From: Gammaproteobacteria bacterium | GTDB lineage: Bacteria; Pseudomonadota; Gammaproteobacteria; Ga0077536 | Assembly (NCBI GenBank): GCA_016191285.1 | Contig: JACPPA010000027.1 | Coordinates: 41,603 to 105,602 of the forward strand | Direction: 5' to 3' | Length of the DNA stretch: 64,000 nt | Shown: in pieces, positions 39,557 through 56,878 of the stretch | How the letters are laid out: every line of letters begins with the position of its first letter | Numbering within the stretch: the first letter of the stretch is position 1 | Notes under the pieces: model-generated | The model's input: the letters and a program-made list of their open reading frames with translations, nothing else | Database searches by the model: none | What the model was told of the DNA's origin: nothing | Program-made: the position numbers and the translations under genes

Positions 39557-39573
39557 TGACCGGCGCACGCCAG

Positions 39574-40038: not shown

Positions 40039-40092
40039 TGCTCCGTGCTTTTAGCGCAAAACGATCGGTATTCGGGAATCGATACATCTTTA

Positions 40093-43000
40093 TTAGTTCC
40101 CGCGATATTCGCGCCAGGATATTTCGCCGTTCTTAATACCCCCTAGCGTCGTCGCGTTCGTGGTGTTGATGGCGCCGGTCGAAGACTGCGTCACCGCGGT
40201 GACTTTGCCGGGGACGTCCTGTTTCCCGATATGAATACTCGGCGTGGATGCCAAGCCGGCACCCAAGTCCACGCTGGGAATAGATTCGGTTACACCTGTC
40301 GGACAGGAATTCGCCGGGCAAGGTTGCTGGCCAAAGATCCCGGTCGGTGTGGTCGTGCCGCTTTTGAAAAACAAACCCAATAGCTTGCTAGTTCCTTCGG
40401 CCCCGCACAGGTCGGTACTGGGCGTGAACTCGGTGCCGAATACCACGCTGTCGATGACCGTTGCACGGTTGACACTGCGGCCTGCTGGTGTGTCCACCGG
40501 CGTCGCTTGATTCGCATAGTCACGTTTCCAACCACCCGCGGCCGTGATCGAACTGACGATGCCTTTGAAGGACGCATCGGGCGTGGTGCCACCGGTGGTC
40601 GATACATCGCCGTTGCTGAAGACGCGGTATTTCGTCACATCGATCAGCCCATTCCCAGCACGCGCAACGACCGTGGGTTCCGCCAAACTGGCAACGCTCC
40701 CTATGTCTTTGTTTGGATCGATGAAGCCAAACATGGTTTGCGTGGTGTTGGTCGATTTATCCGCGTTGGCGAGAAACCGCCCGGAGCCTGCGATGACCCA
40801 GCGATTGAATTGCTCATCGGTCGCGATGGCGGGCTGCGAGACGAAGGGCAAATTCACACCGCTCAAGATTGTCCCCATGGTCCATTTCGTCGGATCGCTC
40901 TTCTCTCCAAGCGAGATCCTGAAGAGCCCGCCCTTGTTAGTTGCCGTATCGCTCGGATTACCGACCGTGCCGAAATAAATGGCTTCGGCCATCATGTTGA
41001 TGTTGTAGTCCGAGACGACTGGGTCGCCGATAAAAACATCTGGTGTCGTCAACGTGAAGGTCTTCACCAGTCCCCCGGTCGCGGGGTTTCTCAAATCCGC
41101 TAAGTCGTAGGCAAAAACCTGCGCGAATTTCTGACTCGGAGCGGTACCCGATTTGTAGCTCGCGTCGGCAAGTTCAGTCGGTCCAGAGCCAAAAACGAGA
41201 TACCATTTATTAACCGTATTGCCGTTCGGCGTTTGGAAGGTCGCGACTTGCGGGAATACGGTGGTCATCTGCAAGTTGGGCGGCGAAATTTCCGCCAGCA
41301 CCGTCGGCGCCTTTTCCGGATTCGTTACGTCCATCACCACATACGCGGATTTGGTAAGCACGCGGTCAGTGGTGGTCGCCGGATTGCCGTCGGTATCGAT
41401 GATAATACCGTTACTGTCCGCGCCACCGCCGAAGCGCATGCCAGCGACGAGCAACGTACCCCATCCATTGGGATGATCGGCATCCGGGGTAAAGACCTTG
41501 GCGTCGAACGCGCGCACGGTCGCGTCCACGCCGTAGACGTGGGAGTAGTCCTTGCGCGCCGACCATTGTAGGTGTGGAAGCAGGTTTTTCGGTATATACG
41601 CCCAAATTTCGCTACCCAAGGGATGCTGAACCTCGGTTCCGCTTGGTAGGGCGCGTAGATTGAATTGCGCAGTCGCGGCGTCGAAAAACCCGCCGTTGAA
41701 CGCATGGATCATGCCGTCGTTGCCGCCGATGTACACCACCTGCCGGCGATTACGATAACGTTCGCGAAATGCACCGTAAGTCCTGTCCTGCGCCAAGAGA
41801 TCAAAGGCCTCCGCCGGGGTGGCGACGGGTACCGGCGTGGAGTTGATGATATCGCCGAGCCGCATGATGGCTGGATCGCCATTGACATTCTTTTCATTGC
41901 CACCGCCTGTATAGTCGAGCAGGCGCGGCCGGAATTGCGTTAGACCCGTGTCCAGGCCGCGCGTCCACTTCACCAACGCCTGCCCGGCACTCGCCGTATC
42001 CGCGTCCAGCCAGCGGAAATTGGCGCCGGCGAAATTAGTGTCGACAAAGTCGATCACCTCACCGGTATCGACAAAGTTATTGAGATTACTGTCAACCCAA
42101 GTAAGGATGTGGCGCCCAAGGTTGGCCGGATCGGCGAACGCGCGCTGACTGGTGATCGTGGCTTCGCTTAAGTTCGTCAGCTGCTCGCGCGCATTCCAAA
42201 TGGTCTGCAAATCGCTCAGCTCTTTAATCTGCGAACCCGAGGGCGTAAAGGTGGTTGGCGAACTGCTCGAAAAGCGCTCGATTCGCGAACGGCGCAGGGT
42301 TGTGTCGAAGAAAATTCTGACGACCGGATCGATCGTGTAATCGTCGAGCTTGCCTTTGATTCCGGCGATACTGCTGTCTTCACGGATGAAGCCACGGGGA
42401 TCGATCCACAGCGCGTGTAAGGTGCCTATCCATTTTACTTCGCCGTTCTTATCTTTCTTGAAGGGGTCGTAAACGGCTTGAAACACCGCGCCTGTTCCTT
42501 GTTGGTCATTGGCGACAACGGCCGCTGCCGTACCGGACGATACCCGTTCGATGATCCGGTCAAAAATCGTGGTGAGCGCGGCCTCGAGCGCACCCGGATT
42601 AGTCACGAAGAAGAAATTGTCCGGGATCCCATCGCCGCCCGGCACCGGGCGGCCCTTCCCATCGAGGGTGTCCCACAGCGCATTCGTGCTGGGTGTGAGA
42701 TCGCCCTTGGAGGTATCGAAGCCACCCCATTTCGCCGCATAAAAGAGCGGGGATTCCAGGAGTTTGGCGGACGGATCCGCGCCTGCGGTAAAGGTGTACG
42801 ACTGTGCGCCGGTCTGGCCGCCGCCTTCGGAAATCGCGCGGCAGTTATTGCATCCCGGCACGCCGGACGGATCTGTGGTCGGAGCGGCGGCGAAGTAGTT
42901 GCCGCCTTTAATGCCGGAGTATGCGTGAAAACCGTCCTGGGTGCTGCCACTAATTACAAACCCGAACAGTTGTCCGTTTATGGTCGATTGCGCCACGGCT

Positions 43001-45294
43001 GTGGTCGTCACGGTCAATTTGGCCGGACTGACGGTGGTGTCGAGCCGATATTCGAGGGTGCCCCATTCGTCCTGGTCGTAGTCACCGCCTTGTTGGCTGT
43101 CTTCCCAGTTGATATAGAACTTCCCGCTGAAAATTCTGCTGCCGGGTTGCGGCTCGGCATTATTGCCCGGGTCCACTTCAGTATGCGGACGGACGATTTT
43201 GAAATCGGTCAGCGCACCGGCGCCATCCAAGGCCGAATTATTAAGCGCTTCGTTGGCGTTATTACCACCCTTCCTTAAGCGATAAGCCGGCAAAATCCGA
43301 ATCACTTGGCCCGTTACCGCGTTGACGGGGACGGTAATCGTCGGCGTGGCCGTGGCGAGCGAGACTGCGAAGGTATTCACCGCTTGGGTCCCCTGGAGGT
43401 CAGGCCGGATATCGTTGGTGTGCGCCCACCAGGCTTCACCAGCCATTGCATACGAACCATGTTGCGTCGGGCCTTCAGGGCAAAGACCAAACGCCTTACC
43501 GAGGCCCGTGACGGATTTCGCGGTGCAGATCCCGTTTTGATCGCCAGGGTTCGGACCGCCAGTGATGCTGCCGACGAAATATTTATTACCGGTGATGGCT
43601 TCCCCGTCGCCGACCTTATCGGTCAGTGAGATGAAATCCGGGGTGCCGGGTAGATCAGCCGCGGTATTTTGATCATCATCGTAGGAATTCACACTGGCGT
43701 TAAAAACAATCGTGTTTAATGACGCGCAAAAATTGCTCGAGGTCAGCGGGTTCGGATTCCAACTGTCACCCCCAAGCTCCGTGATGTAGTCCGGATCCTT
43801 GCGCGCGCCGCCGCTCTGCGCGTTGGGGGTGTTGACGGCGTCGAAGGCGGTGGTGGGTGAGCGCGAGTTGCCCGCGATGGCGAGATAGCGCAGCGTTTCA
43901 AGATAAATCTCCGAGATGGGATTTCCCCAGCTCGCACAACGGCCTTCTCCCGGTCCGTTGACCGGGGGCGTGGTCACTCGCAAATCCGTCAACTGGAAGG
44001 TGCAATTATCGCCACCCGAGTCACCGCTTAGATAGGTTCCATTGTTATAGCCATACCCCCAGATGCGGACGTTGTTAAGGGTTTTAATGATCCCGGTGGT
44101 GACCGCATTATTGAACGTGCCGTCGGCGACATTGATTTCGGGTGAACTCGGATCCACCAAACTGCCAATCTTTTTACGCAATACGCCGCCCGATATATTT
44201 TTTCCGTAACTTCCCGTGATGAGGCCGAAGTTAATGCGACCGTCCACGCCGTAACGCTGCAAGAGTCCCTCGGGCTTTTTGTTGTTCCCATACGGCGAGC
44301 AGTTTTCGAGATCATCGGTCGCATCGAAAAATGTCGATTCACAGACCGCGACTCGTACAATTTGATCGCGATCGCCGACGGGGCTGGTCAGTTGCACCGA
44401 CACCGGGGGATTGCCTTGCGCGGCAAAAATACCCGATCGCGCCGGGTTATTGGAGTTGTTACCGACGCCGCCGGGCACAGTTCCGGCAAATTCACTTTGC
44501 CAGGTGCATTGCCGGCGTTCGCTGGCGCCCCATAATTGATAATTCCCTTGCACCACCCGCATCATCGGCGGCGGATCGGGCGTTGCGGTCGGAGTCGCGG
44601 TGGTGGTGCCCTGTGAACTCCCGGTGCGTTTGTACGAAATATTGCAAATGGTGATCCCTTCATCGAGGTCGTCGATGCCGTTAGCGTTGCCACCGTTTGC
44701 CCTATCGGAAGGCACGTCCGCGTAGGGCGTGAGGCTCGCGATGTCGGCGCCGTCGTAGTATTTGGCGAAACTATGCGCGTCGCCCGGCAGGTGCGCCCGT
44801 TCCAATACCGTGCTGGTTGCGGTATCTGTCGAGCGGTATCCGCCATAGAGAATCTTGCGCACGATGTCCATGCGCGTCATCGTCGCCCAGTTTAGAAAAT
44901 TACCGCTCCAGGCGCCGGCGCAATAATGTTTGTTGACGCCCGCGGTAACCGCGACGGCGTGAAAGGTCTTAGTCGCATCGAGGTTATAGCAACGGTGTGA
45001 GTGAAAGTAACCGTAGTATTCGAAGGTGTCGGTATACGTGGTCTCGATCACGCCGTCGCGATTGAGGTCCGTGTAATCGTTATAGGCCTTAAGCCAGTAC
45101 TGGTGATCGAGCGACATCGACAGCATGACGATCGGTGTGGCGGTTTGCACGGTGGCAATCGGCAGCGACGTGAAATCGGACATGAGCCGGCCCGACAAAT
45201 TGGCTTCTGCCACCCCCGACCAAAGCGCTGGCAGGAAGCCTATACTGAGCGCAATTCCGGAAACGAAACTACGAAGGGTCTTTAGCGCATTCAT
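40093..45294 (-). CDS. pilY1: PilY1-family type IV pilus tip adhesin/biogenesis factor (unusually long)
   Basis: 1733 aa with a signal peptide. The N-terminal region is PilY1-like (PIVMLSMSLDHQYWLKAYNDYTDL). The C-terminal propeller shows VVYIGGNDGMIHAFNGG and NGWGTLLVAGMRFGG. It occupies the pilX-pilY1-pilE position. Confidence 0.85.
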   Translation of the reverse strand: MNALKTLRSFVSGIALSIGFLPALWSGVAEANLSGRLMSDFTSLPIATVQTATPIVMLSMSLDHQYWLKAYNDYTDLNRDGVIETTYTDTFEYYGYFHSHRCYNLDATKTFHAVAVTAGVNKHYCAGAWSGNFLNWATMTRMDIVRKILYGGYRSTDTATSTVLERAHLPGDAHSFAKYYDGADIASLTPYADVPSDRANGGNANGIDDLDEGITICNISYKRTGSSQGTTTATPTATPDPPPMMRVVQGNYQLWGASERRQCTWQSEFAGTVPGGVGNNSNNPARSGIFAAQGNPPVSVQLTSPVGDRDQIVRVAVCESTFFDATDDLENCSPYGNNKKPEGLLQRYGVDGRINFGLITGSYGKNISGGVLRKKIGSLVDPSSPEINVADGTFNNAVTTGIIKTLNNVRIWGYGYNNGTYLSGDSGGDNCTFQLTDLRVTTPPVNGPGEGRCASWGNPISEIYLETLRYLAIAGNSRSPTTAFDAVNTPNAQSGGARKDPDYITELGGDSWNPNPLTSSNFCASLNTIVFNASVNSYDDDQNTAADLPGTPDFISLTDKVGDGEAITGNKYFVGSITGGPNPGDQNGICTAKSVTGLGKAFGLCPEGPTQHGSYAMAGEAWWAHTNDIRPDLQGTQAVNTFAVSLATATPTITVPVNAVTGQVIRILPAYRLRKGGNNANEALNNSALDGAGALTDFKIVRPHTEVDPGNNAEPQPGSRIFSGKFYINWEDSQQGGDYDQDEWGTLEYRLDTTVSPAKLTVTTTAVAQSTINGQLFGFVISGSTQDGFHAYSGIKGGNYFAAAPTTDPSGVPGCNNCRAISEGGGQTGAQSYTFTAGADPSAKLLESPLFYAAKWGGFDTSKGDLTPSTNALWDTLDGKGRPVPGGDGIPDNFFFVTNPGALEAALTTIFDRIIERVSSGTAAAVVANDQQGTGAVFQAVYDPFKKDKNGEVKWIGTLHALWIDPRGFIREDSSIAGIKGKLDDYTIDPVVRIFFDTTLRRSRIERFSSSSPTTFTPSGSQIKELSDLQTIWNAREQLTNLSEATITSQRAFADPANLGRHILTWVDSNLNNFVDTGEVIDFVDTNFAGANFRWLDADTASAGQALVKWTRGLDTGLTQFRPRLLDYTGGGNEKNVNGDPAIMRLGDIINSTPVPVATPAEAFDLLAQDRTYGAFRERYRNRRQVVYIGGNDGMIHAFNGGFFDAATAQFNLRALPSGTEVQHPLGSEIWAYIPKNLLPHLQWSARKDYSHVYGVDATVRAFDAKVFTPDADHPNGWGTLLVAGMRFGGGADSNGIIIDTDGNPATTTDRVLTKSAYVVMDVTNPEKAPTVLAEISPPNLQMTTVFPQVATFQTPNGNTVNKWYLVFGSGPTELADASYKSGTAPSQKFAQVFAYDLADLRNPATGGLVKTFTLTTPDVFIGDPVVSDYNINMMAEAIYFGTVGNPSDTATNKGGLFRISLGEKSDPTKWTMGTILSGVNLPFVSQPAIATDEQFNRWVIAGSGRFLANADKSTNTTQTMFGFIDPNKDIGSVASLAEPTVVARAGNGLIDVTKYRVFSNGDVSTTGGTTPDASFKGIVSSITAAGGWKRDYANQATPVDTPAGRSVNRATVIDSVVFGTEFTPSTDLCGAEGTSKLLGLFFKSGTTTPTGIFGQQPCPANSCPTGVTESIPSVDLGAGLASTPSIHIGKQDVPGKVTAVTQSSTGAINTTNATTLGGIKNGEISWREYRGN

Positions 45295-45321
45295 CGTTTA
45301 ATACTCCATGACCATGCGGGC

Positions 45322-45969
45322 TTAATTTTTGATGAGTACGCGAAAATCCGCGCCAGTGCGGACCTGCGCATTACCCGCCGCGCTGCCCGTTGACCGTAAA
45401 TCCAAGAACACATGGGCGTCGGCGCCTGCCGCACCAACCCCCGTGCCGATATAGCCGGAACCCTGCGCGGCGCCGGAGCCGCCAGCCAACGCGGCGCCAG
45501 TGCGCGTGACCCAGATGCTCGACACCATGTCATTGCGCCCGCCTTGGTTGGCATTGCCGAAGAAATGCATATCCTCGGCGCGCGGCGTCAAACCATCGCC
45601 ATCCGGCGCTGGTAAATCTTTAATGACGCCGTTATCGCCCATGTAGTACAACTTGCTTCCATCTTTAACGGTGACTTCGGGCGGAATCACGAAGTTCGTC
45701 GAATTGGGGACCACGCCTCCCGGAATACTTTGTGGCCAGCCGCGATAAAACACGTGATAGGAAAGCGCCGGACCTATCGCCACGCGCGGTCCGTCCGAGT
45801 TTTGGAACGCGCGCCGGTTAAGCGTGGTATTGGTCGTCATTTTTAAGTCGAGCGTGGTGGAACGCATCGCGACCACCGCAATCATGGTCATGACCAGCAA
45901 TAACACCAACGCGACGATCAGCGCGAAACCATGTTCGCTCGACGCACCGCGACTCGATATATTTCTCAT
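45322..45969 (-). CDS. pilX: Minor pilin PilX
   Basis: ATG at 45969 gives MRNISSRGASSEHG/FALIVALVLLLVMTMIAVVAMRSTTLDLKMT, the PilX N-terminal signature. Confidence 0.75.
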   Translation of the reverse strand: MRNISSRGASSEHGFALIVALVLLLVMTMIAVVAMRSTTLDLKMTTNTTLNRRAFQNSDGPRVAIGPALSYHVFYRGWPQSIPGGVVPNSTNFVIPPEVTVKDGSKLYYMGDNGVIKDLPAPDGDGLTPRAEDMHFFGNANQGGRNDMVSSIWVTRTGAALAGGSGAAQGSGYIGTGVGAAGADAHVFLDLRSTGSAAGNAQVRTGADFRVLIKN

Positions 45970-45973
45970 GACG

Positions 45974-47074
45974 CTACCCACGAATGAGATTGCGAACTTG
46001 AATGGATGAATTGATAAGCTTGCGGCGGAATTTTTGGACTGCAACGGGGGCGGTATAAGTCTCACCCGCGCCGGCCGCGCCGCCGTACAAACGGTACGTA
46101 TTGGTGTCCGGCGGCATCGTCTGGTCGCGCTCTAGATTGCGCAGGATGAGACTTAAGCGCACATCGACGACTTTGTCCCAATTATTCGCGTCGGTAATAG
46201 TCGCTGCGTTTTGGTATTGATCGGCGGTTAGATCGCCATTGGTATCGAGGCCATAGCTGACCTGCATTTGCTCAACGCCAGCGATGATGTCTTGTTGCAC
46301 GAGTGTGGCGCCGTCGGTGTCGAGCACCAGGCGGGTTAACGTCGGAATCGCATCGTCCTGCCCATCGCATACGTTGGCGGTTCCCCGATCTTGGGATGAG
46401 CACTGACGGATGAAATACACTTCAAAGTTAAAGCGCTGGTTTGAAATATAGTCGGGCGCCTCGGTGTTGGTTTGGTCACGCAGATCTTGAATGCTTCCCG
46501 CGCCGTTGGCGAACAGCGCCGCGGCGTCTTCCGCTTGGTAAATCATGCCGCGGCGGCCGATGGCGGTACGCACCATGATCTGTTTACTTAGCGGCACGAT
46601 GCTAGCCGCGGGAATATTTCTGAGACTGAATTGGGGTGGCGAAGCGTAGCGCAGGACGATCATGTCCGTGTTCGCTTGATAATCGGCATTCGGAATGCAA
46701 CTCAAGGGAGAGTTTGCCGACGTTCCGTCGAAGCCGGTGATTCCAGTCCCGCTCAACACTGGACTCGCGGCGCAATTGAGGGGGATTGCCGCGATGCCGG
46801 GGTCCACCGTCAGATCCGGACCTTTTACTCCGCCCCAGTGATCCGCAAGGCGCAAGCTGTATTCGATCTGATTGAGCGCGTACCGCGCGTTTTCATTTAA
46901 AACGTTCGTGCCCTCTTGAATTCGATAGGCCTGCTTGTTGGTGACGAACAGCTCGACGATTCCCGCAAGCAGGATCAAGCCAACCGTAATCGCGACCATC
47001 ATTTCGATGAGCGTGATGCCGCGCTGGTTGAGCAGCATGCGTCGCACGGAGGCCTCCTTAAGGAACATTTGCAT
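45974..47074 (-). CDS. pilW: Minor pilin PilW
   Basis: QRG/ITLIEMMVAITVGLILLAGIVELF. An alternative start lies at 47038. Confidence 0.75.
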   Translation of the reverse strand: MQMFLKEASVRRMLLNQRGITLIEMMVAITVGLILLAGIVELFVTNKQAYRIQEGTNVLNENARYALNQIEYSLRLADHWGGVKGPDLTVDPGIAAIPLNCAASPVLSGTGITGFDGTSANSPLSCIPNADYQANTDMIVLRYASPPQFSLRNIPAASIVPLSKQIMVRTAIGRRGMIYQAEDAAALFANGAGSIQDLRDQTNTEAPDYISNQRFNFEVYFIRQCSSQDRGTANVCDGQDDAIPTLTRLVLDTDGATLVQQDIIAGVEQMQVSYGLDTNGDLTADQYQNAATITDANNWDKVVDVRLSLILRNLERDQTMPPDTNTYRLYGGAAGAGETYTAPVAVQKFRRKLINSSIQVRNLIRG

Positions 47075-47651
47075 ACGGAATTACTCGCATCACGAGAAGC
47101 TTCATGCCGGTATCGCCGGTAACATCAGGGTTAGCGACTCGGTCTCTCCTATCGACTGCACGTTCGGTCCACGCGATTTTAATTGCGTAAACACTGCCCA
47201 GGTAGTCGCAGGCCCAGGCCGCGGGGTTACCGTCATCGGGCGTGGAATCGATGCAGACCATGCCGGCGCCGCCTGGCAAGGTATCGGCGTTTGACGCCTT
47301 GGGTTTTGTCGCGTCCGTGGTGGCGACGTTCCAGGTTACGAGGTCATAGGTCGCGAGTTGGGCCGGCGTGCAGGTGGCGTTACTACAATCGGCGGTGCTG
47401 GTAACCGGCATCGCGCCTCGAATGTTATAGAGACCAGTGTCCATGCCAGCGCCATTAGCGCGCATGCGGTCCGCCATATTTTCCGCTTGCGCGGTGGCGA
47501 TCGCGCGCAATTGCGAGCCTTGGGTGAAACGCATGCCTTTGACTTGCAGACCCGCGATGCCCAGCAACCCGATCGAAAAGATCACGATGGCAATCAGAAT
47601 TTCGAGTAGCGTGAATCCGCACTCGCGCCGGCGGCCACGTTGATTTTGCAT
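47058..47651 (-). CDS. pilV: Minor pilin PilV
   Basis: ECG/FTLLEILIAIVIFSIGLLGIAGLQ. The ATG at 47651 forms a TAATG overlap with the upstream stop. An alternative ATG lies at 47663. Confidence 0.75.
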   Translation of the reverse strand: MQNQRGRRRECGFTLLEILIAIVIFSIGLLGIAGLQVKGMRFTQGSQLRAIATAQAENMADRMRANGAGMDTGLYNIRGAMPVTSTADCSNATCTPAQLATYDLVTWNVATTDATKPKASNADTLPGGAGMVCIDSTPDDGNPAAWACDYLGSVYAIKIAWTERAVDRRDRVANPDVTGDTGMKLLVMRVIPYANVP

Positions 47652-48265
47652 TACGGCGTGCATACTAAGGCGCTGCCATTCGGTTTTTTGGTGATGACGG
47701 ACGCGCGGCCGGTGCGGCTCACCGCAAGGGCTTTGGCTTTGGTCGCGCCGCGCTGATCGCAGAGGACGAAATAGGAATTGGTGCTGGAGCAGGCGCTGCC
47801 GTTACACAGCGCCGCGCCACTTCCGTTATAGGCAATTCGCCGCACGACATCGGGAGCGCCGCGCAGGGTGTTGACGCCGGTCAAACCCGCCTGAGCAGCC
47901 ACGATGCAGTCCGCCGTTGCACCAGCGGCACAGCCATCCGCCGTACCGGACGGCGCATCGTAGACGCCGTTGTTATTGCGATCGACAAAAACCTGCCAGC
48001 CACTGTTCCAATCGATGCCGGAAGTATCGCAGGTGGTGCTGAGAGTCGAAACGCTGTTCGTCACGCAGACCACCACTGGCGCGTTTTGCTTAATCGCCTC
48101 ATTGCGCGCAAGCGCCAATGAACTGGACAGCATGTTCAACTGCGAGGTGAGACGGTTATCGAGAATGAATTGATTCAGTGCCGGTACGCCAACGCCGATC
48201 GCCACCCCGAGGACCGCGACCACGGTCATCAATTCGATAAGGGTAAAACCACGTGTGTATCGCAT
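47651..48265 (-). CDS. fimU: GspH/FimT-family minor pilin (FimU-like)
   Basis: ATG at 48265 gives MRYTRG/FTLIELMTVVAVLGVAIGVGVPALNQFI. It is the first gene of the operon. Confidence 0.7.
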   Translation of the reverse strand: MRYTRGFTLIELMTVVAVLGVAIGVGVPALNQFILDNRLTSQLNMLSSSLALARNEAIKQNAPVVVCVTNSVSTLSTTCDTSGIDWNSGWQVFVDRNNNGVYDAPSGTADGCAAGATADCIVAAQAGLTGVNTLRGAPDVVRRIAYNGSGAALCNGSACSSTNSYFVLCDQRGATKAKALAVSRTGRASVITKKPNGSALVCTP

Positions 48266-48457
48266 GCCAATGAGTATCGTCCGTGGATCGCGCCCGCGCA
48301 CCCGCCATTCAGTTGAACGGTAGGAATCGACCAACCAGCGGTCGTTAGTCTTTCTTCGCGAAGGCTTTAGGCGTGACCGCGGTCACACAATGCGATGTTC
48401 CGGTCAGCACCGTCTCGTTACCTGGACTCCGCAACGTTCCTGCGTATACTGCCCCGC

Positions 48458-48892
48458 ATGCAGGAACTCGACGCCTTGCCCGACGCCAAACAGCAGTTGG
48501 CCACTGTGTTAAATGGGCACGGAATTCTGCCCACGGTGCAACGGGTCGAAATCGCCGCCATCCTGCTCGCGCACCTTCAACATCTGTCGGCCGAGCAGGT
48601 CCTGGCTAAAGTATCCACGGCCGGATTGGCCGTCTCCAAAGCGACGATCTATAACACCTTAGGGCTGTTTGTCGAACGCGGTCTGGTCCGCGAGGTCATC
48701 GTCGATTCCACGCGAGTCTTCTACGACTCGAACACCGCGCCCCATTATCATTTTTATAATGTTGACGACGGCACCCTCACCGATGTCGCCATCGACGATG
48801 TAGTGATAGCGCGCCTGCCGTCCCCCCCGGGTGGCACAGCGGCCACCGGCGTCGATATCGTCATGCGAGTTCGGAACCAGAAATTGCAGTAG
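48458..48892 (+). CDS. Fur-family transcriptional regulator (Irr-like, no Cys pairs)
   Basis: Winged-helix region HLSAEQVLAKV...SKATIYNTLGLFVERGLV, then FYDSNTAPHYHFYNVDDGTL. The CxxC motifs typical of Fur/Zur are absent. Confidence 0.7.
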   Translation: MQELDALPDAKQQLATVLNGHGILPTVQRVEIAAILLAHLQHLSAEQVLAKVSTAGLAVSKATIYNTLGLFVERGLVREVIVDSTRVFYDSNTAPHYHFYNVDDGTLTDVAIDDVVIARLPSPPGGTAATGVDIVMRVRNQKLQ

Positions 48893-48932
48893 GTCCGGGC
48901 TAGTGCTTCGGGTATTATCCGCGGCCTATAAA

Positions 48933-49008
<76 letters not shown>

Positions 49009-49174
49009 ACGATATCAGCTAGTTACGAATAATCCTCGACTTAGTCTTCGCTCACGAGGTTTCGATTTGGTGTCAGTAACGGTGGCAGTAACGATTTAGG
49101 CAGCCGGGCGGCAATCTTAAAACCAGCAGCGCTTTAGGCCGCTAGCAATCTGCAACGATGCGTAAGGACGAGGT

Positions 49175-49405
49175 ATGAAGATCACGGTCATGGCGGTGTG
49201 GGACGACGAAGCGAAAGTCTGGGTCGCGACGAGCGACGATGTGCCAGGGCTGGTCGTCGAAGGCCCTACAGTCGAACTCCTGCGCCAAAAAGTTTTAGCT
49301 CTAATTCCCGAACTCTTGGAATTAAATGGGATGGCGCAGCCGCACGGCGCTGATCTGCCGTTGCACCTCCATTACGAAGAACAACGTACGGTCCATATCG
49401 CGTAG
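49175..49405 (+). CDS. hicB: HicB-like (DUF1902-type) antitoxin
   Basis: 76 aa: MKITVMAVWDDEAKVWVATSDDVPGLVVEGPTVELL. A good SD (AAGGACGAGG) precedes it. It ends 5 nt before hicA. Confidence 0.6.
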   Translation: MKITVMAVWDDEAKVWVATSDDVPGLVVEGPTVELLRQKVLALIPELLELNGMAQPHGADLPLHLHYEEQRTVHIA

Positions 49406-49410
49406 CCGCT

Positions 49411-49605
49411 TTGGCCGGCTATACCCGAGAACTAAAACAAGCGCTTCGTGCTGCAGGGTGCCGATTTCATCGCCAGGGGAAGGGCGACCACGAAATTTGG
49501 TATAGCCCGATGACTGATCGCTACTTTCCTGTCGATAGCGATATCAAGTCGCGACACACGGCGAACGCGGTGCTCGTACAAGCTGGATTGGCGAAGCAGT
49601 TTTAA
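49411..49605 (+). CDS. hicA: HicA-family mRNA-interferase toxin
   Basis: 64 aa: LKQALRAAGCRFHRQGKGDHEIWYSP...HTANAVLVQAGL. TTG start. Confidence 0.6.
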   Translation: MAGYTRELKQALRAAGCRFHRQGKGDHEIWYSPMTDRYFPVDSDIKSRHTANAVLVQAGLAKQF

Positions 49606-49845: not shown

Positions 49846-49861
49846 TGCAACTGGGATGAGA

Positions 49862-50137
49862 ATGAGCGATACCGAGAAGGCCTTCAACATCGAAAACTGC
49901 GAGTTCGCGTTCAAGTGCCTCCGATACTGGGAAGGTCTTGAACCGACCGATAAGGACGACAAGCGCTACTGCATCGATTGCGAGCGCGAAGTGTTCTTGG
50001 TCGAAAACAAGGTGCTGTTCGAAGCGCATACGCGGCTGGGGCATTGCGTGGCGGTACACGATCCTTCGCGCAAAATTCGGGAATTTGTCCTCGGTATGCC
50101 CTACGCGAAGGACTACAGCGTTTTGAAGTGGGATTGA
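49862..50137 (+). CDS. Hypothetical small Cys-rich protein (possible zinc ribbon)
   Basis: CEFAFKC...CIDC gives a four-Cys arrangement. I do not recognise a family. Confidence 0.35.
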   Translation: MSDTEKAFNIENCEFAFKCLRYWEGLEPTDKDDKRYCIDCEREVFLVENKVLFEAHTRLGHCVAVHDPSRKIREFVLGMPYAKDYSVLKWD

Positions 50138-50226: not shown

Positions 50227-50757
50227 CTATAACGTCGCCAACACGCGATCCAAAAACACACGAGTCAACGCGTAGCTCCCTGGACGCTGCTCCTCGCGAG
50301 GGCCGGCGATGTTAAGTGTCGCTATGCGTTCCTCTGACAACCAAAGCGTGACGAGTGCCACGTCAGAATCAGAGTCGCAATCGACTAGGCGATATGGTTT
50401 ATCGGCTTGTTCAGCGAACTGGATAGTCGACAGCGTGCCACCCTCAACGACTCCGACGTTTAGAATCAGCGTCCCGTCGGAATCTCTGACGTTCCATTTT
50501 GTGCGTTGCGCGTACTTTGCGGAATGGGTTTCCCGTAATCGATATCGAGCGTGAATAACGCCGTCTTCGGCGCGTCGGCCTTTCGGGCACCATCCTCCAT
50601 GTTCGATCCCACTAGAAATCGCCCAATCCAGTGCGGCTCGATCAACGCCAGTTTGACCGCCCGAGAGAATAATGCTTAGGCCACGGTACGGTAAGCGATT
50701 AATGGAGGCGCACCTCGCAACTGACGAATGGAGAGCATTGCCGGAAACGCACCGCAA
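50227..50757 (-). CDS. SLOG-superfamily protein (putative molybdenum-carrier / YpsA-like family)
   Basis: IILSGGQTGVDRAALDWAISSGIEHGGWCPKGRRAEDGVI, YAQRTKWNVRDSDGTLIL and NIAGPRE motifs. TTG start, uncertain. Confidence 0.6.
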   Translation of the reverse strand: MRCVSGNALHSSVARCASINRLPYRGLSIILSGGQTGVDRAALDWAISSGIEHGGWCPKGRRAEDGVIHARYRLRETHSAKYAQRTKWNVRDSDGTLILNVGVVEGGTLSTIQFAEQADKPYRLVDCDSDSDVALVTLWLSEERIATLNIAGPREEQRPGSYALTRVFLDRVLATL

Positions 50758-50818
50758 TGTAACAGTACGTTCGAACCCACGGCGGGCAGCTCCACCTACC
50801 GTTTGGATTTTAGGGAAC

Positions 50819-50965
50819 CTCTGAATAAGTCCATCCTGGACTTATTCAGAGTACGGGAAGCAAAAAGTATGATTTTTGCTTCCCTTCATTTTCAATGGTT
50901 TGCACCCATCGAAAATGGCGGCGCTTCCCTGTGCCGCGGGAAGCTCTGCCTTTTGCAGAGCTTCC
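50819..50965 (+). repeat. Five-hairpin structured repeat, copy A
   Basis: Consecutive perfect or near-perfect hairpins at 50819-50851 (15 bp), 50855-50884 (12 bp), 50887-50917 (12 bp, one mismatch), ~50918-50937 (5 bp) and 50939-50965 (11 bp). An inverted homologue lies at 53236-53374. Confidence 0.8.
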
Positions 50966-51167
50966 TTAGACCTCGGAGCGGCGGAAATAAGTCGCCTACT
51001 TCCGCGCCCAGGGCGCCGGCGATCGTAATGAGATTCAGGGCTGCGATATTTCGTTCACCACGCTCAACGCCGCCGTAATACGCACGATCTAACCCCGCGT
51101 TGGCGGCAAAACCCTCCTGAGAGTAGCCAGCTTGCAGGCGAAGCTCCCCGATCCGCTGACCAATCAT
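50892..51167 (-). CDS. XRE-family HTH transcriptional regulator; the 3' end runs into repeat A
   Basis: MIGQRIGELRLQAGYSQEGFAANAGLDRAYYGGVERGERNIAALNLITIAGALGAEVGDLF. The last ~24 codons are encoded by repeat A and are probably not native. Confidence 0.65.
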   Translation of the reverse strand: MIGQRIGELRLQAGYSQEGFAANAGLDRAYYGGVERGERNIAALNLITIAGALGAEVGDLFPPLRGLRKLCKRQSFPRHREAPPFSMGANH

Positions 51168-51322
51168 TACCAATTGTGGATGCCGCTTTCGCACCCCGCA
51201 ACGCTAAGGGTATCCTTTTGCCGCGGCCACGGCCTATGAGGAGCATTAAAAGAAATCAAGCATCGGCACTGATCTCCAATCAGCCCTTAGCAGTTTTGAT
51301 TTTATGAACCTACGGAAGAACC

Positions 51323-51847
51323 ATGCGCCTTCTCACTCTCGCTCTCGTATTTGCCCTTATTGGATGCGGCGCGACGATTCAATCCTACGAGCACCTCAGT
51401 AACGAGACGAGACATAATTTATCGACTCATATCGGTGGCCAGGTTTTGAGAATCCAGCGCACATCAGATCTTCCGAATGCTTTCGGGAAGGCGGATATCT
51501 TCGGTGGCAAAGTCAATAACGGCTACACCGAACTATGGTATCAAGGCTTAGTTCCGGATGATCGCGTCGTTTTTCGTATCACCGAAGTCGAGACTGAATC
51601 CACCGAAACCACGATGAGCCGATACGGCAGTTCTAGGTCGACGGTCAGTGCCCAGCGCGTTGGTGACAATCTCTATGGCACGGTTACTTCGTATAGTGCT
51701 CCGAGCGGTAGTACAGAACGTTTGCCACCCAATATGACAGAGTTTGCGGTTGATCCAAATAAGAGCAAAGAATTCAGCGTCGCCGGGGTGACGGTCCGAA
51801 TTATCAATGCCACCGAAACATCGCTGTCTTATCAGCTTTTAAAGTAG
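51323..51847 (+). CDS. Hypothetical lipoprotein
   Basis: MRLLTLALVFALIGC carries a lipobox. There is no recognisable domain. It ends 7 nt before the IS66 terminal repeat. Confidence 0.5.
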   Translation: MRLLTLALVFALIGCGATIQSYEHLSNETRHNLSTHIGGQVLRIQRTSDLPNAFGKADIFGGKVNNGYTELWYQGLVPDDRVVFRITEVETESTETTMSRYGSSRSTVSAQRVGDNLYGTVTSYSAPSGSTERLPPNMTEFAVDPNKSKEFSVAGVTVRIINATETSLSYQLLK

Positions 51848-53415
51848 GCTGGTAGTAAGCGATCAACCAACCGCAATTTTTTCGGTGTGATAGCGGTGTG
51901 CATATGATCTGACGCTGGGACAGCCATGTCTTCTCTGAGCGCCACCGCCCACGGTAGCAGTGCTTCGATTTTCTCCACCGTATCCGCCGCCGGGAGTGCG
52001 TTGAAGACATGGCAGAGATAGCGATACGGCTCAAGCCCGTTCGCTTTCGCCGTCTCGATTAAGCTGTACAGATTGGCGGATGCCTGTGCACCCTTCACGG
52101 TATCCGCAAACAACCAGTTCTCGCGGCCAATCACAAACGGTCGGAGTGCATTCTCAGCGGCGTTGTTGTCGAGCGGATAATCGCCGTCCTCTAGAAAGCG
52201 CACGAGCTTCGGCCATTGCTCATTCAGGTAGTGCAGCGCTTTGCCCAGCAACGATTGGGGTGCGACGCCGTGTAGCTCGACTTCCACGCGGTGTTTGATT
52301 CGCGCCAGTAACGGCGCACTGTCACGTTGACGCAAGGCGCGGCGCGCGTTGGCCGCGAGACCTTTCGCCCGCGCCGCCACCGGGATTAAATCTTCCGCTT
52401 CAACCAACCGTCGTCGCGCCTGCGCCCAACAGCCTAAGTGACTGAGCGGTACCGTGCGCGCCACCACGTCATACACTTCATAACCGTCGGTCACCAGCAC
52501 CCCCTTGGCACCGGCATATAAATCAAGCGCGGTCTTGGCACTGCGCGACGGCGCATAGGTGAATAATCGGACCGGCGGCCCCGTGCCTGTCAGCTGTAAC
52601 CATAGATAAGACTTCGAGGTGGCGGCCCGACCGTCTTCCTTCAACACCTGCAGCTCGGTCTCGTCGCCATGCAGCACGGCGGCGTCGAACAGTCGGTCAC
52701 GCAGCAGATTAATCAACGGCGTCACCGCCTGACCCGCGCGAATAACACTGTGCGCCAAAGTGTGCCGCGCGATATCCCCGCCGAAGCGCCGCAAGATGGC
52801 CGCCTGCCGGTACAACGGCAGCGCGTCTTGGTACTTCGCGGTAATCACCCACGCCAACGCAGCCTCACTCAATTGCGACTTCGGCAGCAACCGCAACGGC
52901 CCGGGTGCCACCCGCACCCCTTGCACACAACAGGGACACGCGTACTTCACCCGCTCATGCCGAATCACCCGAATCAACGCTGGCACGATGTCCGGCTGCT
53001 CGGCCGTCTCCACACCCATCTCACGTAACACTGCGCCGTCGTGCGGACACACGCGTTCCGACGCCGGTAACTCATGCCGCACTACCATCCGCGGCAAGCC
53101 CGCATCCAAGGGTTTGCGCCCGCCACGCTTGCGCGAGTGCGACGGCACCTCCACACGCGTGGCCTCAGTCTCTGGCGCGACGCTGAGTGCCGCCCGTGCT
53201 TCCGCTTCGTTGAAGAATAAATCCGATTGCGCTAAGGAATCTCTGCAAAAGGCAGAGATTCCCGCGGCACAGGGAAGTGCCGCCATTTTCAACGGTCGCA
53301 GATCGTTGAAAATGAAGGAAAACAAAAATCGCACTTTTTGTTTTCCGTACTCTGAAAAGTCCAGGAGGGACTTCACCGCGCAAGCCATTAATACATAATT
53401 TATCGCACCGATCAC
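51832..53415 (-). pseudogene. IS66 transposase TnpC with the N-terminal region replaced
   Basis: TnpC similarity begins at DLFFNEAEA...RKRGGRKPLDAGLPR...CPHDG...KYACPCC and continues to ...EALLPW. The first ~60 codons are encoded by repeat B, and the ORF reads through the terminal repeat. Confidence 0.7.
53236..53374 (-). repeat. Five-hairpin structured repeat, copy B (inverted relative to A; outer hairpin truncated)
   Basis: The reverse complement aligns with copy A at roughly 85% identity by eye. Substitutions in stems 2, 3 and 5 are paired on both arms. Confidence 0.8.
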
Positions 53416-53419
53416 ACCG

Positions 53420-53839
53420 TCAACTGGCGCGCCGATAGCGCAACACCTGATGACCGCGCAACGCCGCTAAATCAACCCCGCACAACAACCAACGCAACTG
53501 CTCCACACTCAAGATCAGCACCGCCTCATCTGTACGCGGCCAGATAAAACGCTCACGCTCCAGTCGCTTGTAACACAACCAAAAACCATTCCGCTCCCAG
53601 CTCACTAGCTTCACTTTGTCGCGACGACGGTTGCTGAACACAAAACACGACTCACTAAACACTACCACTTTATCCGGCGCAGGCACCGCACCACCCCGGC
53701 GCTTCAGCTCATGCCGTGCCGCATATAAACGTTGCACCGAAAGACTCTGCGACGCCGCGTAACGCGCTAACGGCTCGCCACTCCGCGCGGCCGCCGCTAA
53801 ATGCTGGTGCCAATGTGATAACGGTTGACGTTTCGACAT
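53420..53839 (-). pseudogene. IS66 tnpA'-'tnpB in-frame fusion remnant
   Basis: The N-terminal ~55 aa look like IS66 Orf1 (MSKRQPLSHWHQHLAAAARSGEPLARYAASQSLSVQRLYAARHEL). The remainder matches the C-terminal two thirds of IS66 Orf2/TnpB (VFSNRRRDKVKLVSWERNGFWLCYKRLERERFIWP). Confidence 0.6.
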
Positions 53840-53924
53840 GTGCTGCGCTCCCATTTCGTACCGGAAGCGCAGACTGTGCCCCTAAACGATAGCGAACATA
53901 AGATTGGGGATTACGGTTCGCTTA

Positions 53925-53977
53925 CAACTGATTCGTAATCAGTAGGTCCGCGGTTCGACTCCGCGCGTCGGCACCAA
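53925..53977 (+). repeat. Duplicate of the 3' half of tRNA-Thr (putative attR remnant)
   Basis: It is identical over 53 bp to 48957-49009 (CAACTGATTCGTAATCAGTAGGTCCGCGGTTCGACTCCGCGCGTCGGCACCAA). The first C could also be the last base of the IS66 terminus. Confidence 0.9.
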
Positions 53978-54130
53978 AATCAACAAGTTACCCGAGTGCG
54001 AATTTCAGGCTGCCTAAGCATCGCCGGTTTTGCCGTAACGGTTCTCGCGGCAACGCTTCATCGATCAGAAAAGCCGCGCTTTCTATCATCCGGCGTGCAC
54101 CGCTCGACGTGACGCACAGCGGCAGATGCC

Positions 54131-55273
54131 TCAGAACAGCGGATAATTTGGCGTCAGTCCGAGACGATGCCGCCCATAGAGCTCGAAGGCGACATCGCGT
54201 TCGATGAAGGCGTGGGTGGCGAGCATGTTGAGGTCGCGGAAGTAGCGCTGCAGCGGCGTACCGAGGTTGAAGCTCCTCGTCCCCGCGCGCGACATCATCG
54301 CGTTGACCGCCTCGCGGCATAGGTCGGCGATATATCCAGCGCGCATTTTCAAGTCGAGCCGCGTATCGAGAGTGAACTGCCGCTGCCGCATGCATACTTC
54401 GGTGTCGGTAACCAGGCGCTCGAGCAGCATGCCGGCGGCGCGCGAGCGCGCATGCGCTTCGCCGAGATTGATGTGTACGGCCTGCTTCTGGGCGAGCACG
54501 TCTCCTCCCCAGGTCATGACCTTGTTCTGCATGAGGGTCTGGTACGCTGCCGTCGCCCCTTCGAGGCCGCCGCAGTAGACGCCCATGACTTCACAGTAGA
54601 TGAAGGGTAGCAGCGGAATGGCATACAGCGGATTGTCGTGGATCGAGTCCGTGCCGTTGAACAGCGCTTCAGCCGGGACCGAGCGGTGCTCGGGCACGAA
54701 GAGATTTTCCGTGATGACATCGTTGCTGCCGGTGCCGGCCATGCCGCTCATATGCCACACATCTTCCACCTTGACGTCCTTGATCGGGACCACGAAGGCA
54801 CGTGCGTCCGCACCGCCGGCCTTCGCGATCATGACCCAGTCGGCATGCATGATTCCCGAGCTGAAGCTCGAGCGTCCGCTGATCTCGTAGCCGCCGCGCA
54901 CCGGCTTGATGCGGACGTTCGGGGATGGCTGGATGGGCATCAGTCCAAAGGGGCGTTCGGCCCAGACTTCACGCTGAACCTGTTCTGGAAACTTGGTCAG
55001 CATCCAATTGTGTCCGATATAAAAGGCTGTGACCCAGCCCGTAGACAGACAGGCACTGCTCACCGCGCGCGTGACGCCAGCCAGTGCGTCCAGCCCCAGC
55101 TCGTGCCCGCCGAAACGCTTCGGCACCAGCATTTGCATGATCCCAGCATCGACGAGCGCGCCGATGGACTCGTCGTGAGGCCGACGCTGAGCTTCGCTGG
55201 CTTGCGCACGTGCGGCGATTCCGGGCAGTTGCGCCGCGACTTGTTCCAGTAGTATTTCTTTCGTGATCAACAC
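54131..55273 (-). CDS. Acyl-CoA-dehydrogenase-fold flavin-dependent monooxygenase (HpaH/HsaA/DszC-like oxygenase component)
   Basis: 380 aa: AQRRPHDESIGALVDAGIMQMLVPKRFGGHELG..., GGYEISGRSSFSSG. There is no obvious acyl-CoA catalytic-base context. Family-level call only. Confidence 0.6.
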   Translation of the reverse strand: MLITKEILLEQVAAQLPGIAARAQASEAQRRPHDESIGALVDAGIMQMLVPKRFGGHELGLDALAGVTRAVSSACLSTGWVTAFYIGHNWMLTKFPEQVQREVWAERPFGLMPIQPSPNVRIKPVRGGYEISGRSSFSSGIMHADWVMIAKAGGADARAFVVPIKDVKVEDVWHMSGMAGTGSNDVITENLFVPEHRSVPAEALFNGTDSIHDNPLYAIPLLPFIYCEVMGVYCGGLEGATAAYQTLMQNKVMTWGGDVLAQKQAVHINLGEAHARSRAAGMLLERLVTDTEVCMRQRQFTLDTRLDLKMRAGYIADLCREAVNAMMSRAGTRSFNLGTPLQRYFRDLNMLATHAFIERDVAFELYGRHRLGLTPNYPLF

Positions 55274-55333
55274 GGAGTGATCTCCCCTTCGATTGCAGCG
55301 CCTCTTCGATATCGAGCCGAGATTCGGTGCAGG

Positions 55334-56413
55334 TTATGCCTGTCGCTCGTGAGCACTCATCGGCAAGCTCGCCGTAGCCCGCTCTTCCTCGAGCAGCTTG
55401 TCCAGCACCCACAGCATCTTGACCGGCCCCGCATCGTTCGCAATGTTCAACAGTTTCAGATCGGGGCGTTCCTTGCGCCGCTGATGCTGCGCTTCGAGCA
55501 TGATTCGATCTTCTTCGAAAGCCTCGTCCAGCGTGCTCCCCAGCAGATCGCTCAAGCCGGGGAACTCTGTTTCCTTGCTGGCGCCCCACGAGTAGTAGTA
55601 GTCCACCGAATCATCATCGCAGGGAGTCACCGCCTGGCAGGTCCAGGTGTCCACCACCATCTGGCCGCTGGATTCGCCAACGGTGGCCGTGCCGGCGGTG
55701 AAAGCGCGGAAACGCATGATCCAGTTGCACGGCACGGTATGCTGTATATCGAGGCAGATATCCAGCTTGGCGCCTTCCGGGAAAAGATGGGCAACGGCGC
55801 CAGTGGGCGCCACCGAGCGTACCCAACACCGGGTGTTCAAACCCCGTGGCGTAATCTCGTAGTGCGATTTCATCTCGCTGTATTTGCGATCGCCGCCGAC
55901 GGTCTGTGGATGGACCCAGGCGATATGACTGAGATCCGCGAGGTTTTCTATCTCGCGGCGGTAATTGGTCTCAACGTGCATCTGGGAGGTGCGGATATTC
56001 CAATTGGGATCGTCCGGCCCGACCGCGAAGCAGATTAGCCCGGGATCAGCCTTGGCCGGGTCGCCCATCCAGACCCATACCCAATTGTCTTTCTCGACGA
56101 CCGGAAATGCCCGCACGCAGGTGCCCGCGGGGATCGTGGTCTGGCCGGGAATCTCCTCGCACACGCCGGCGCTATTGAACTTCAAGCCGTGGTACATGCA
56201 GCGCAGTCCATCGCCTTCCTTGCGGCCATGGGATAGCGCGGCCTGACGGTGCGGGCAGCGATCTTCGAACGCAATCACGCCGCCGTCCGGCTTGCGATAC
56301 AAAACGACGCGCTCGCCGGCAATCTTGCGCGCGACGATCGCCTTTCGACCCTGGTGGATCTCGTAGTCCCAGCCCGCGCAGTACCAGGCGTTCTGCAGAA
56401 AAATCTCAGCCAT
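55334..56413 (-). CDS. Rieske [2Fe-2S] non-heme-iron oxygenase, VanA/phthalate-family alpha subunit
   Basis: ATG at 56413 gives MAEIFLQNAWYCAGWDYEI. The Rieske motif is CPHRQAALSHG...CMYHGLKF. The mononuclear-iron region contains NLADLSHIAWVH. Confidence 0.8.
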   Translation of the reverse strand: MAEIFLQNAWYCAGWDYEIHQGRKAIVARKIAGERVVLYRKPDGGVIAFEDRCPHRQAALSHGRKEGDGLRCMYHGLKFNSAGVCEEIPGQTTIPAGTCVRAFPVVEKDNWVWVWMGDPAKADPGLICFAVGPDDPNWNIRTSQMHVETNYRREIENLADLSHIAWVHPQTVGGDRKYSEMKSHYEITPRGLNTRCWVRSVAPTGAVAHLFPEGAKLDICLDIQHTVPCNWIMRFRAFTAGTATVGESSGQMVVDTWTCQAVTPCDDDSVDYYYSWGASKETEFPGLSDLLGSTLDEAFEEDRIMLEAQHQRRKERPDLKLLNIANDAGPVKMLWVLDKLLEEERATASLPMSAHERQA

Positions 56414-56878
56414 TATCGACTCCTCCAGACAATTGCTTTGCCGCAAGACGTGCTTGACGCGGTGCGGCGCCTGGGATCGCATTCTGACATCCGGCGCCGC
56501 CTGTGATTCTAAACGCAGCGCGAAGGGCCGGCACCCCCTTCCGAAACCTTGCGAAAGATTAAGTGAGGGATCAATTTCACTGAAGGACGGTGACGCCAAG
56601 CGACCAGACGGTCCCACGGAGGTCGGCAGCGGGATCGACCGAACCGAGCCGGTGAGCGGAGAGCGCTATACCGTTAAGCGGTACGGGAGCGAGAAGGCGC
56701 GGTGCTTCTTGGCGTAATTCCCGGATTACATTTAAACCAATCAACCCCGATTTCGAACCGATCGTCTCTACGGACGCGGATGAAGGAGAACTGCAGGTGA
56801 TTGCTGAAGTCCTGGAAATGCTTCCTGCGTAGACTTTGGGTGCCCGGCGAGCTGGAATGCAACGACCATGCTCAGCAC

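Follow-up and report, generated by a model that had tools for sequence, protein, structure and literature searches.

The closest described counterpart of the element considered here is MITEPsy1 of Pseudomonas syringae pv. phaseolicola 1448A, a miniature inverted-repeat transposable element (MITE) of 100 nt with 18-nt terminal repeats, GGAAGGTCTGAAAAAGCC and GTATCCTCTGAAAAAGCC, which duplicates 4 nt at CTAG or YTAA and has been attributed to the IS5-family insertion sequence (IS) ISPsy2 (Bardaji et al., 2011; PMC3189936). MITEPsy1 has been trapped transposing into sacB in vivo and is also known to have entered avrPphE at its 3' end (PMC3189936). In this study we analyzed a stretch of 64,000 nt from the genome of a gammaproteobacterium (assembly GCA_016191285.1, contig JACPPA010000027.1, positions 41,603 to 105,602; hereafter the window), which carries an inverted pair of repeats, copy A and copy B, each folding into a row of five hairpins. 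Very probably, each of these repeats is a separate insertion of a non-autonomous, non-coding MITE of 152 bp with termini of the IS5-group type. The element appears to belong to the same class as MITEPsy1 but to a different family and, as far as searched, it would represent a previously undescribed family of a well-known kind. It resembles MITEPsy1 in its 4-nt duplication of the CTAG/YTAA type, in being tiny and devoid of an open reading frame (ORF), and in entering the 3' ends of genes and other transposons. Compared with a MITEPsy1 copy that we extracted from p1448A-A (NC_007274, 16481-16580, CTAG on both sides), the termini of the window element have the same relative orientation and agree at 15/17 and 14/16 nt, whereas the lengths differ (100 versus 152 nt) and the cores are unrelated, only the termini being alignable. 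Furthermore, MITEPsy1 shows pairing of its terminal repeats only (-24.9 kcal/mol), whereas the window element forms five independent hairpins (-85 kcal/mol), and transposition of MITEPsy1 has been demonstrated experimentally, whereas that of the window element is read from its sequence.

Other structured MITEs and repeats of bacteria, i.e., Correia/NEMIS, ERIC, RUP, BOX, SPRITE, and QMITEs, have been reviewed, and some structured MITEs act as terminators or yield small RNAs (sRNAs) (PMC10969869). The window element shares with them a small size, a base composition richer in AT than that of the host, a mostly intergenic occurrence, and transcripts that would fold stably, but they have other termini, duplications, and parent IS families and mostly form one long stem instead of a row of five hairpins. 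The target duplication of Correia elements, for example, is TA. The REP, BIME, and REPIN sequences, mobilised by Y1 enzymes of the RAYT type, are similar in consisting of arrays of short, near-perfect intergenic palindromes, the stems of which are kept via paired changes. REPINs, however, are without DDE-type terminal inverted repeats or target-site duplication and possess a conserved GTAG-type 5' motif, whereas the window element combines IS5-type termini with duplications of 4 bp. Membership of this group was rejected, since terminal repeats and duplications are present and GTAG is, by reading, absent from copy A. The literature was also searched for the terminal sequence, which yielded nothing relevant.

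Terminal repeats, flanking duplications, and the two insertion sites

The initial annotation of the window had described an inverted pair of ~140-bp repeats. This was confirmed by a repeat search of the window, which returned inverted arms of 125 nt with 87% complementarity (50845-50969 and 53232-53356), and by blastn, which aligned copies A and B over 143 nt at 87.4% identity (E = 3.5e-46). The two copies lie 2.26 kb apart in opposite orientations, and their longest run of perfect identity measures 19 nt. Searches with the unit by blastn and nhmmer, as had been proposed, revealed no third copy in the window, and nhmmer profile and covariance-model searches of the window and all loci examined did not recover further diverged copies. 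The GC content of copy A is 49%, versus 58% for the window. With respect to the boundaries, the right limit of copy A was kept, while its start had to be moved 5 nt upstream, to where the terminal inverted repeat begins; for copy B the limit at 53236 was retained, and the other end lies at ~53376, the outermost ~12 nt (the left terminus and 5' arm of hairpin 1) having been lost (Table 1).

The ends of the element provide the principal evidence for its identification. In an alignment of the family, the element opens with GGAANCTCTGA and closes with its inverse; in copy A the left terminal repeat reads GGAACCTCTGAATAA... and the right one ...GCAGAGCTTCC. Within the window GGAANCTCTGAATAA occurs only at 50814 (+), 50965 (-), and 53236 (+), for a chance expectation of 0.13, and termini of the form GGAACCTCTGA... 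are also present in five relatives from other genomes (L002, L004, L005, L007, and L008; see below). Duplications of 4 bp flank five of the six full-length copies, i.e., TTAG for copy A and L005, TTAA for L007 and L008, and TTCA for L004. Because these flanking repeats are fixed in length but variable in sequence, they represent target-site duplications, and because the unit combines a length of 152 bp with terminal inverted repeats and a 4-bp duplication, it is regarded as a MITE; across the family, element size ranges from 102 to 168 bp. A transposase acting in trans would bind both termini and excise or copy the element, which would subsequently be inserted at a short YTAR-like site via a 4-bp staggered cut, the repair of which would yield the 4-bp direct repeats. 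The earlier idea that the element has been mobile is thus borne out by terminal repeats, 4-bp duplications, and an empty site, and of the three identities that had been offered (an unrecognised structured RNA, a MITE, or the recognition ends of a hairpin-dependent mobile element) that of a MITE is the one that the evidence supports.

No conserved ORF was found in any frame across the family members, and six-frame peptides of three copies revealed no protein relatives among 5.8 billion proteins. One frame is free of stops across the element in both window copies (50728-51078, +, EPLNKSILDLFRV..., and 53165-53383, -, GEVPPGLFRV...). A coding role for the element was rejected, however, since this frame, open in both window copies, is closed in other family members; that it is shared by the window copies is probably a coincidence. 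This stop-free frame feeds spurious ORF calls and chimeric XRE and TnpC annotations.

Copy A is located in a gene of the XRE family. In silico removal of 50814-50969, comprising the element and one TTAG, turns an XRE ORF of 100 aa into one of 80 aa that ends in PPLRGLKSKR-stop. Three homologues with 85-86% identity (P0002-P0004) end in PPLRGLKAKR-stop or PPLRGLKTKR-stop, and the 391 XRE homologues are mostly 79-81 aa long. A metagenome contig (L011), which carries a related rather than strictly orthologous gene, reads ...GGGCTAAAAGCGAAACGCTAA without interruption, and CTAA is present once at the insertion point, which is situated five codons (four residues and the stop) before the XRE end. The initial view of copy A as a replacement of the XRE 3' end can, therefore, not be maintained: copy A is a simple insertion with TTAG duplication, and the codons for KSKR and the stop survive at 50796-50813. 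Copy A would have landed in TTAG/CTAA, by which the last four XRE residues would have been swapped for an element-encoded tail of 24 residues. Exact-protein look-ups for this XRE fusion and for the lipoprotein encoded between the two copies found neither on record.

Copy B adjoins the remnant of an IS66 element (51832-54127), and to say that it stands in place of the 5' end of tnpC, as the initial annotation did, is descriptively correct. In place of its outer ~12 nt, which should form the left terminal repeat, unrelated sequence is found, and the remainder is 87% identical to copy A. Homology of the decayed tnpC with full-length TnpC proteins (P0122-P0128, P0122 being 75% identical) starts at QSDLFFNEAEA, right after the TTAG that borders the intact end of copy B, and the full-length homologues contain 65-70 more residues upstream of this motif; in agreement with this truncation, the Pfam profile LZ_Tnp_IS66 is matched at positions 25-71 only. 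The tnpC ORF also has a C-terminal read-through extension, and the tnpB ORF is, judged by eye and without a domain match, possibly fused to a tnpA-like N-terminus. In the simplest scenario, copy B would have been inserted at TTAG near codon 68 of the IS66 tnpC, after which a single deletion would have taken its outer ~12 nt plus ~200 bp of tnpC. Close relatives (L020-L023, 89% identical) have only 54127-56462 in common with the window and diverge on both sides; because of this divergence at 54127, they do not supply an orthologous empty site for copy B.

The insertion sites also bear on the possibility that the pair delimits an invertible segment or forms the two ends, in inverted orientation, of a single composite or hairpin-dependent element of 2.56 kb (IS200/IS605-, IS91-, or REP/RAYT-like). 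The inverted arrangement at this spacing and the hairpin-rich ends would be in line with such an element, and pairs of MITEs are able to mobilise the DNA between them (PMC10969869). Against this, copy A is bounded by terminal repeats and a TTAG duplication of its own and interrupts an XRE gene that resumes on its far side, and copy B has lost its outer terminus. Moreover, the interior consists of gene fragments (XRE, lipoprotein, IS66 remnant) without a Y1/HUH transposase, and family members elsewhere occur singly. Consequently, it seems extremely improbable that the copies are the recognition ends of one larger element, as had been suggested. Hairpin ends of the IS200/IS605 or IS91 type, which are subterminal and lack terminal repeats and duplications, were rejected on the same grounds, each copy being self-contained with terminal repeats and a duplication. 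Inversion between the copies, also considered in the initial annotation, is not evident either: the flanking gene order is uninverted, and the XRE gene is colinear across copy A and tnpB-tnpC across copy B, so that the assembled orientation is taken to be ancestral. A stretch of 19 nt of perfect identity is a poor substrate for homologous recombination, and RecA-mediated inversion should be rare.

Table 1. Positions in the window of the two copies of the element, their hairpins and flanks, and the genes and repeats in which they are set.
Feature	Position	Strand	Remarks
Putative MITE, copy A, full length	50814-50965	+	152 bp; covariance model 169 bits; 54/55 model pairs Watson-Crick
Left target-site duplication of copy A	50810-50813		TTAG; identical to 50966-50969
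Right target-site duplication of copy A	50966-50969		TTAG; identical to 50810-50813
Hairpin 1, copy A	50819-50851	+	15-bp stem; inner left terminal repeat and local inverted copy thereof
Hairpin 2, copy A	50855-50884	+	12-bp stem, followed by TTCATTTTCA; resembles intrinsic terminator
Hairpin 3, copy A	50887-50917	+	Fold and alignment
Hairpin 4, copy A	50918-50937	+	GCGGCGC / CTTCCCT loop / GTGCCGC; overlaps 19-mer CTTCCCTGTGCCGCGGGAA
Hairpin 5, copy A	50939-50965	+	Right terminal repeat and head-to-head inverted copy thereof
Putative MITE, copy B, right end intact	53236-~53376	-	Left ~12 nt gone, hairpin 1 degenerate
Target-site copy at intact (right) end of copy B	53232-53235		CTAA on + strand, i.e., TTAG in element orientation
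Hairpins 2-5, copy B	53317-53346, 53284-53314, 53264-53283, 53236-53262	-	Fold and alignment
XRE-family helix-turn-helix gene split by copy A	50970-51194 (body); 50796-50813 (last codons and stop)	-	In silico excision
Decayed IS66 tnpC	51832-53231	-	~65-70 N-terminal codons gone; internal 22-aa deletion
IS66 tnpB remnant	53420-53854	-	TnpB_IS66 profile positions 31-99 only
3' 53 bp of tRNA-Thr(CGT) (gene 48933-49008), left repeat	48957-49009	+	Perfect direct repeat
tRNA-Thr 3'-end repeat, right copy, right boundary of island	53925-53977	+	Perfect 53-bp match, 4.9 kb downstream

The five hairpins and their upkeep

The fold of five consecutive hairpins described earlier was recovered for both copies, with -87.1 kcal/mol for copy A (z = -11.5) and -70.5 kcal/mol for copy B (z = -8.9), and in neither case was any of 200 shuffled sequences as stable. 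In hairpins 1 and 5, a terminal repeat is joined to a local inverted copy of itself, and in both window copies hairpin 2 resembles an intrinsic terminator. All differences in stems and loops that had been quoted for the two copies, including the compensatory ones, are present. Hairpins 2-5 comprise 41 pairs, four of which changed on both sides between copies A and B yet remained Watson-Crick, while two changed on one side; with ~10 substitutions among 82 stem nucleotides, the number of compensated pairs expected by chance is, by a rough estimate, far below one. Of the unpaired positions in these hairpins, 6/32 differ. That loops vary more freely than stems is true in direction, although the gap across the family is small (mean pairwise identity of 0.65 for loops and 0.75 for stems).

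For the family as a whole, a covariance model was built from seven copies, which were subsequently re-aligned to this model. In the resulting alignment of 55 pairs, standard pairs make up 92.7% of the pair cells (Watson-Crick, 320/354), and 17 pairs changed on both sides. Column shuffles gave 8.7 +/- 1.9 such pairs (0/500 reached 17), and sliding the partner by 1-3 columns gave 2-5. The changes include three adjacent T-A pairs of hairpin 3 that became A-T in L002 and L004, while position 5 of the hairpin 5 stem shows all four pair types across the family.

Hairpins 2, 3, and 5 covary strongly between genomes, which could point to a functional structured RNA, i.e., an sRNA or a cis-regulatory or terminator module, in which the hairpins are selected as RNA and mobility is incidental. 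The very stable folds, the terminator-like hairpin 2, and the partly conserved loops would fit such a role, and MITE transcripts can give rise to sRNAs or terminators (PMC10969869). However, in a scan against Rfam, one of the checks proposed initially, the element matched no family, neither at gathering thresholds, where only two tRNAs were found, nor beyond chance at E <= 10. In addition, the mismatches in the seven-copy alignment comprise 8 G·T versus 11 A·C, whereas an RNA read from one strand should tolerate G·U and not A·C; both strands fold equally well (sense -84.9, antisense -86.8 kcal/mol); copies occur in every orientation and context, also inside ORFs; and target-site duplications and IS5-type termini explain the distribution without an RNA function. 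An unrecognised structured RNA gene, therefore, seems improbable. Given that G·T and A·C occur at equal frequency and that the two strands fold alike, the palindromes are probably maintained as DNA or on both strands and not as one strand-specific RNA.

How the hairpins of the proposed MITE are kept is a separate issue. Selection may act on transposition or persistence, for example through orientation-independent termination or insulation; alternatively, the hairpins may be kept by hairpin-templated correction of quasi-palindromes. In the latter case, the compensatory pattern would have arisen without selection, by arm-to-arm copying or reversion through template switching during replication, an idea that contests only the selection for structure and not the identification as a MITE. 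Quasi-palindrome correction is an established mutational mechanism. It would account for stems that are nearly all Watson-Crick, for the equal frequency of G·T and A·C, and for the symmetry of the strands, and in an unrelated MITE with the same termini (L027, see below) a change in the apical stem is likewise compensated. By contrast, the three adjacent T-A to A-T changes in hairpin 3 and the four pair types in hairpin 5 would need repeated events, and the palindromes of L008 and of hairpin 1 of copy B are eroded, indicating that correction is not automatic. We consider this explanation a tentative one, deserving of serious thought but not of preference. It seems rather unlikely, at the other end, that the five-hairpin core is a selected functional module, either an orientation-independent terminator or insulator or a DNA hairpin array read by the transposition machinery or a host protein. 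If it were, this would explain the stem covariation and partly conserved loops across genomes that are ~70% identical, and this MITE family would be well suited to disseminating a structured regulatory cassette.

Relatives in other genomes and the IS5-type termini

Relatives of the element were searched for in genome contigs, one genome per species, with the exact 19-mer that is common to both window copies (Table 1, hairpin 4). This yielded 10 loci, of which six carry related elements, all in gammaproteobacterial metagenome-assembled genomes (MAGs): L005, L007, and L008 in MAG nzgw582, L002 in OZ251218.1, L004 in Dive96_bin3.258, and the partial L009. The four other loci were discarded as chance matches of 19-21 nt in unrelated genomes (Luteimonas, Cohnella, Oscillospiraceae). 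A scan of JGI metagenomes with the same 19-mer gave one partial copy (L014) and two chance matches, and viral contigs scanned with the 19-mer and with the core of hairpin 1 gave 0 matches each. The relatives are 67-76% identical to the window copies and have retained the hairpins. The family occupies unrelated intergenic sites in at least four other gammaproteobacterial MAGs, and its copies are found in every orientation: antisense in the 3' end of the XRE gene, in tnpC, and between convergent, divergent, and tandem genes.

Several members are altered in size. In L002 (2685-2852) the 3' arm of hairpin 1 contains an extra perfect hairpin of 19 nt, CCTGCCTGCTGCAGGCAGG, and the three copies of nzgw582 have an extra segment, ACCCTTSGCTTSGCG, in the loop of hairpin 4. 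Shortened or mosaic members are L005 (1534-1635), L009 (4237-4287), and L014 (2965-3039), one of which has hairpins 1, 4, and 5 only and two of which have hairpins 4 and 5 only. The shortened members and the extra segment suggest internal deletion and modular reshuffling. The L002 member adjoins a gene that, by reading of the sequence, is tRNA-Gly-like, upstream of an EF-Tu-like ORF.

The affinity of the termini was examined by short-query blastn against plasmids at E <= 10; a search of the same plasmids with the whole of copy A at E <= 1e-3 gave no match. On a plasmid of Marinobacter sp. M3C, 19/19 nt of the left end including TTAG were found immediately upstream of an annotated IS5-family transposase gene, and on pA81 of Achromobacter xylosoxidans 21/22 nt occur in the same position relative to such a gene. 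Delimitation of both ISs gave 1183 bp with a TTAG duplication for M3C and 1198 bp with a CTAG duplication for pA81, the latter with a hairpin-1-like palindrome at its left end. The pA81 transposase belongs to NCBIfam transpos_IS5_4 (NF033581, 353.7 bits), and its DNA is ~70% identical to IS5/ISKpn26. The canonical ends of IS5, GGAAGGTGCGAACAAGTCC, match the left end of the MITE at 14/19 nt, and the right end of L007 is matched at 23/23 nt, followed by TTAA, by the end of a decayed IS5-type element on a Microbulbifer plasmid. The window element thus has the terminal GGAA..T..GAA.AAGTCC in common with IS5-group ISs (14/19 for IS5, 18/19 for the pA81 IS, and 15/15 for the M3C IS), as well as 4-bp duplications of CTAG or TTAG, but these ISs are autonomous, ~1.2 kb long, and transposase-encoding and have nothing in common with it past the termini. 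Because the similarity stops after the termini, the M3C, pA81, IS5, and Microbulbifer ISs are considered cousins and not the parent. As part of the explanation as a MITE, the termini (11-19 bp, 5'-GGAANCTCTGAAtaa...) very likely represent the kind of end on which DDE transposases of the IS5 group (IS5 family) act. It had been anticipated that the unit might turn out to be a known terminal repeat from an IS or MITE already catalogued, and its termini do essentially match those of IS5-type ISs and of MITEPsy1.

A scan of viral contigs with the pattern of the terminal repeat gave one locus, L027 (IMGVR_UViG_3300002938_000002), which belongs to a different MITE family. Its element (7161-7321) is GC-rich and 161 bp long, with termini GGAACCTCTGAAYAATTCC and TTAA on both sides, and folds into a single long hairpin (-115 kcal/mol). 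At a distance of 2.4 kb there is a second copy, truncated on the right (4728-~4865), and it is between these two copies that the apical-stem change mentioned above is compensated.

A number of observations weigh against the interpretation of the repeats as a MITE of this type. The flanking 4-mers of L002 no longer match, and the TTCA duplication of L004 falls outside YTAR, which the twofold occurrences of both TTAG and TTAA do fit. The copy number is low, with two copies in the window, three in MAG nzgw582, and singles elsewhere, counts which are limited by the use of an exact 19-mer. The ISs with the same termini are alike over ~19 nt only, apart from a weak likeness to hairpin 1, and tblastn found no autonomous IS5-group element or IS5-type transposase in the window or the family loci, so that a parent of this type and any current mobility are hypothetical. 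Five independent, near-perfect hairpins are also atypical of MITEs, which usually form a single long terminal-repeat stem, as do MITEPsy1 and L027. Finally, the covariation alignment is fitted to the structure and comprises only seven sequences, found through a conserved 19-mer, although the structural conservation of the hairpins is convincing despite this.

The tRNA-Thr island and implications for the family

Both copies of the element lie within a decayed island of ~5 kb, without an integrase, between the two tRNA-Thr repeats (Table 1), the genes of which comprise a hicAB-like pair, cpYpsA, the XRE gene, the lipoprotein gene, and the IS66 remnant. No copies of the element were found in the other 59 kb of the window, and because both are located in the island, they may have arrived together with it. 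Independent Logan contigs (SRR12113392), 100% identical to the window, are interrupted exactly at both copies of the tRNA repeat and within copy A. The toxin-antitoxin pair consists of DUF1902 (HicB-like) and HicA (49175-49605), and the circularly permuted YpsA (SLOG) gene is located at 50227-50757; a 93-aa unannotated ORF at 49856-50137 has no Pfam match. Immediately upstream of the tRNA-Thr gene (39029-48968, L017) lie a Fur-family gene and a large type IV pilus minor-pilin cluster comprising GspH/FimT-like, PilW, PilX, and a PilY1 homologue of 1733 aa.

The assignment of this conspicuous structured repeat to a familiar class averts its misannotation as a novel RNA gene or as a switch that inverts; the five covarying hairpins make for an unusual core but do not amount to a system of a new kind. 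Two gene calls are corrected as well, since the extensions of XRE and of the IS66 TnpC are element-encoded artefacts of insertion. The C-terminus of a regulator has been remodelled by the element, comparable to what MITEPsy1 has done in avrPphE. IS5-group termini of the GGAACCTCTGA type are now seen around at least three unrelated MITE cores, i.e., those of the window element, MITEPsy1, and the 161-bp L027 family. The five near-perfect palindromes of the window element, kept over ~30% divergence, provide a natural test case for distinguishing selection from hairpin-templated mutation in selfish DNA.

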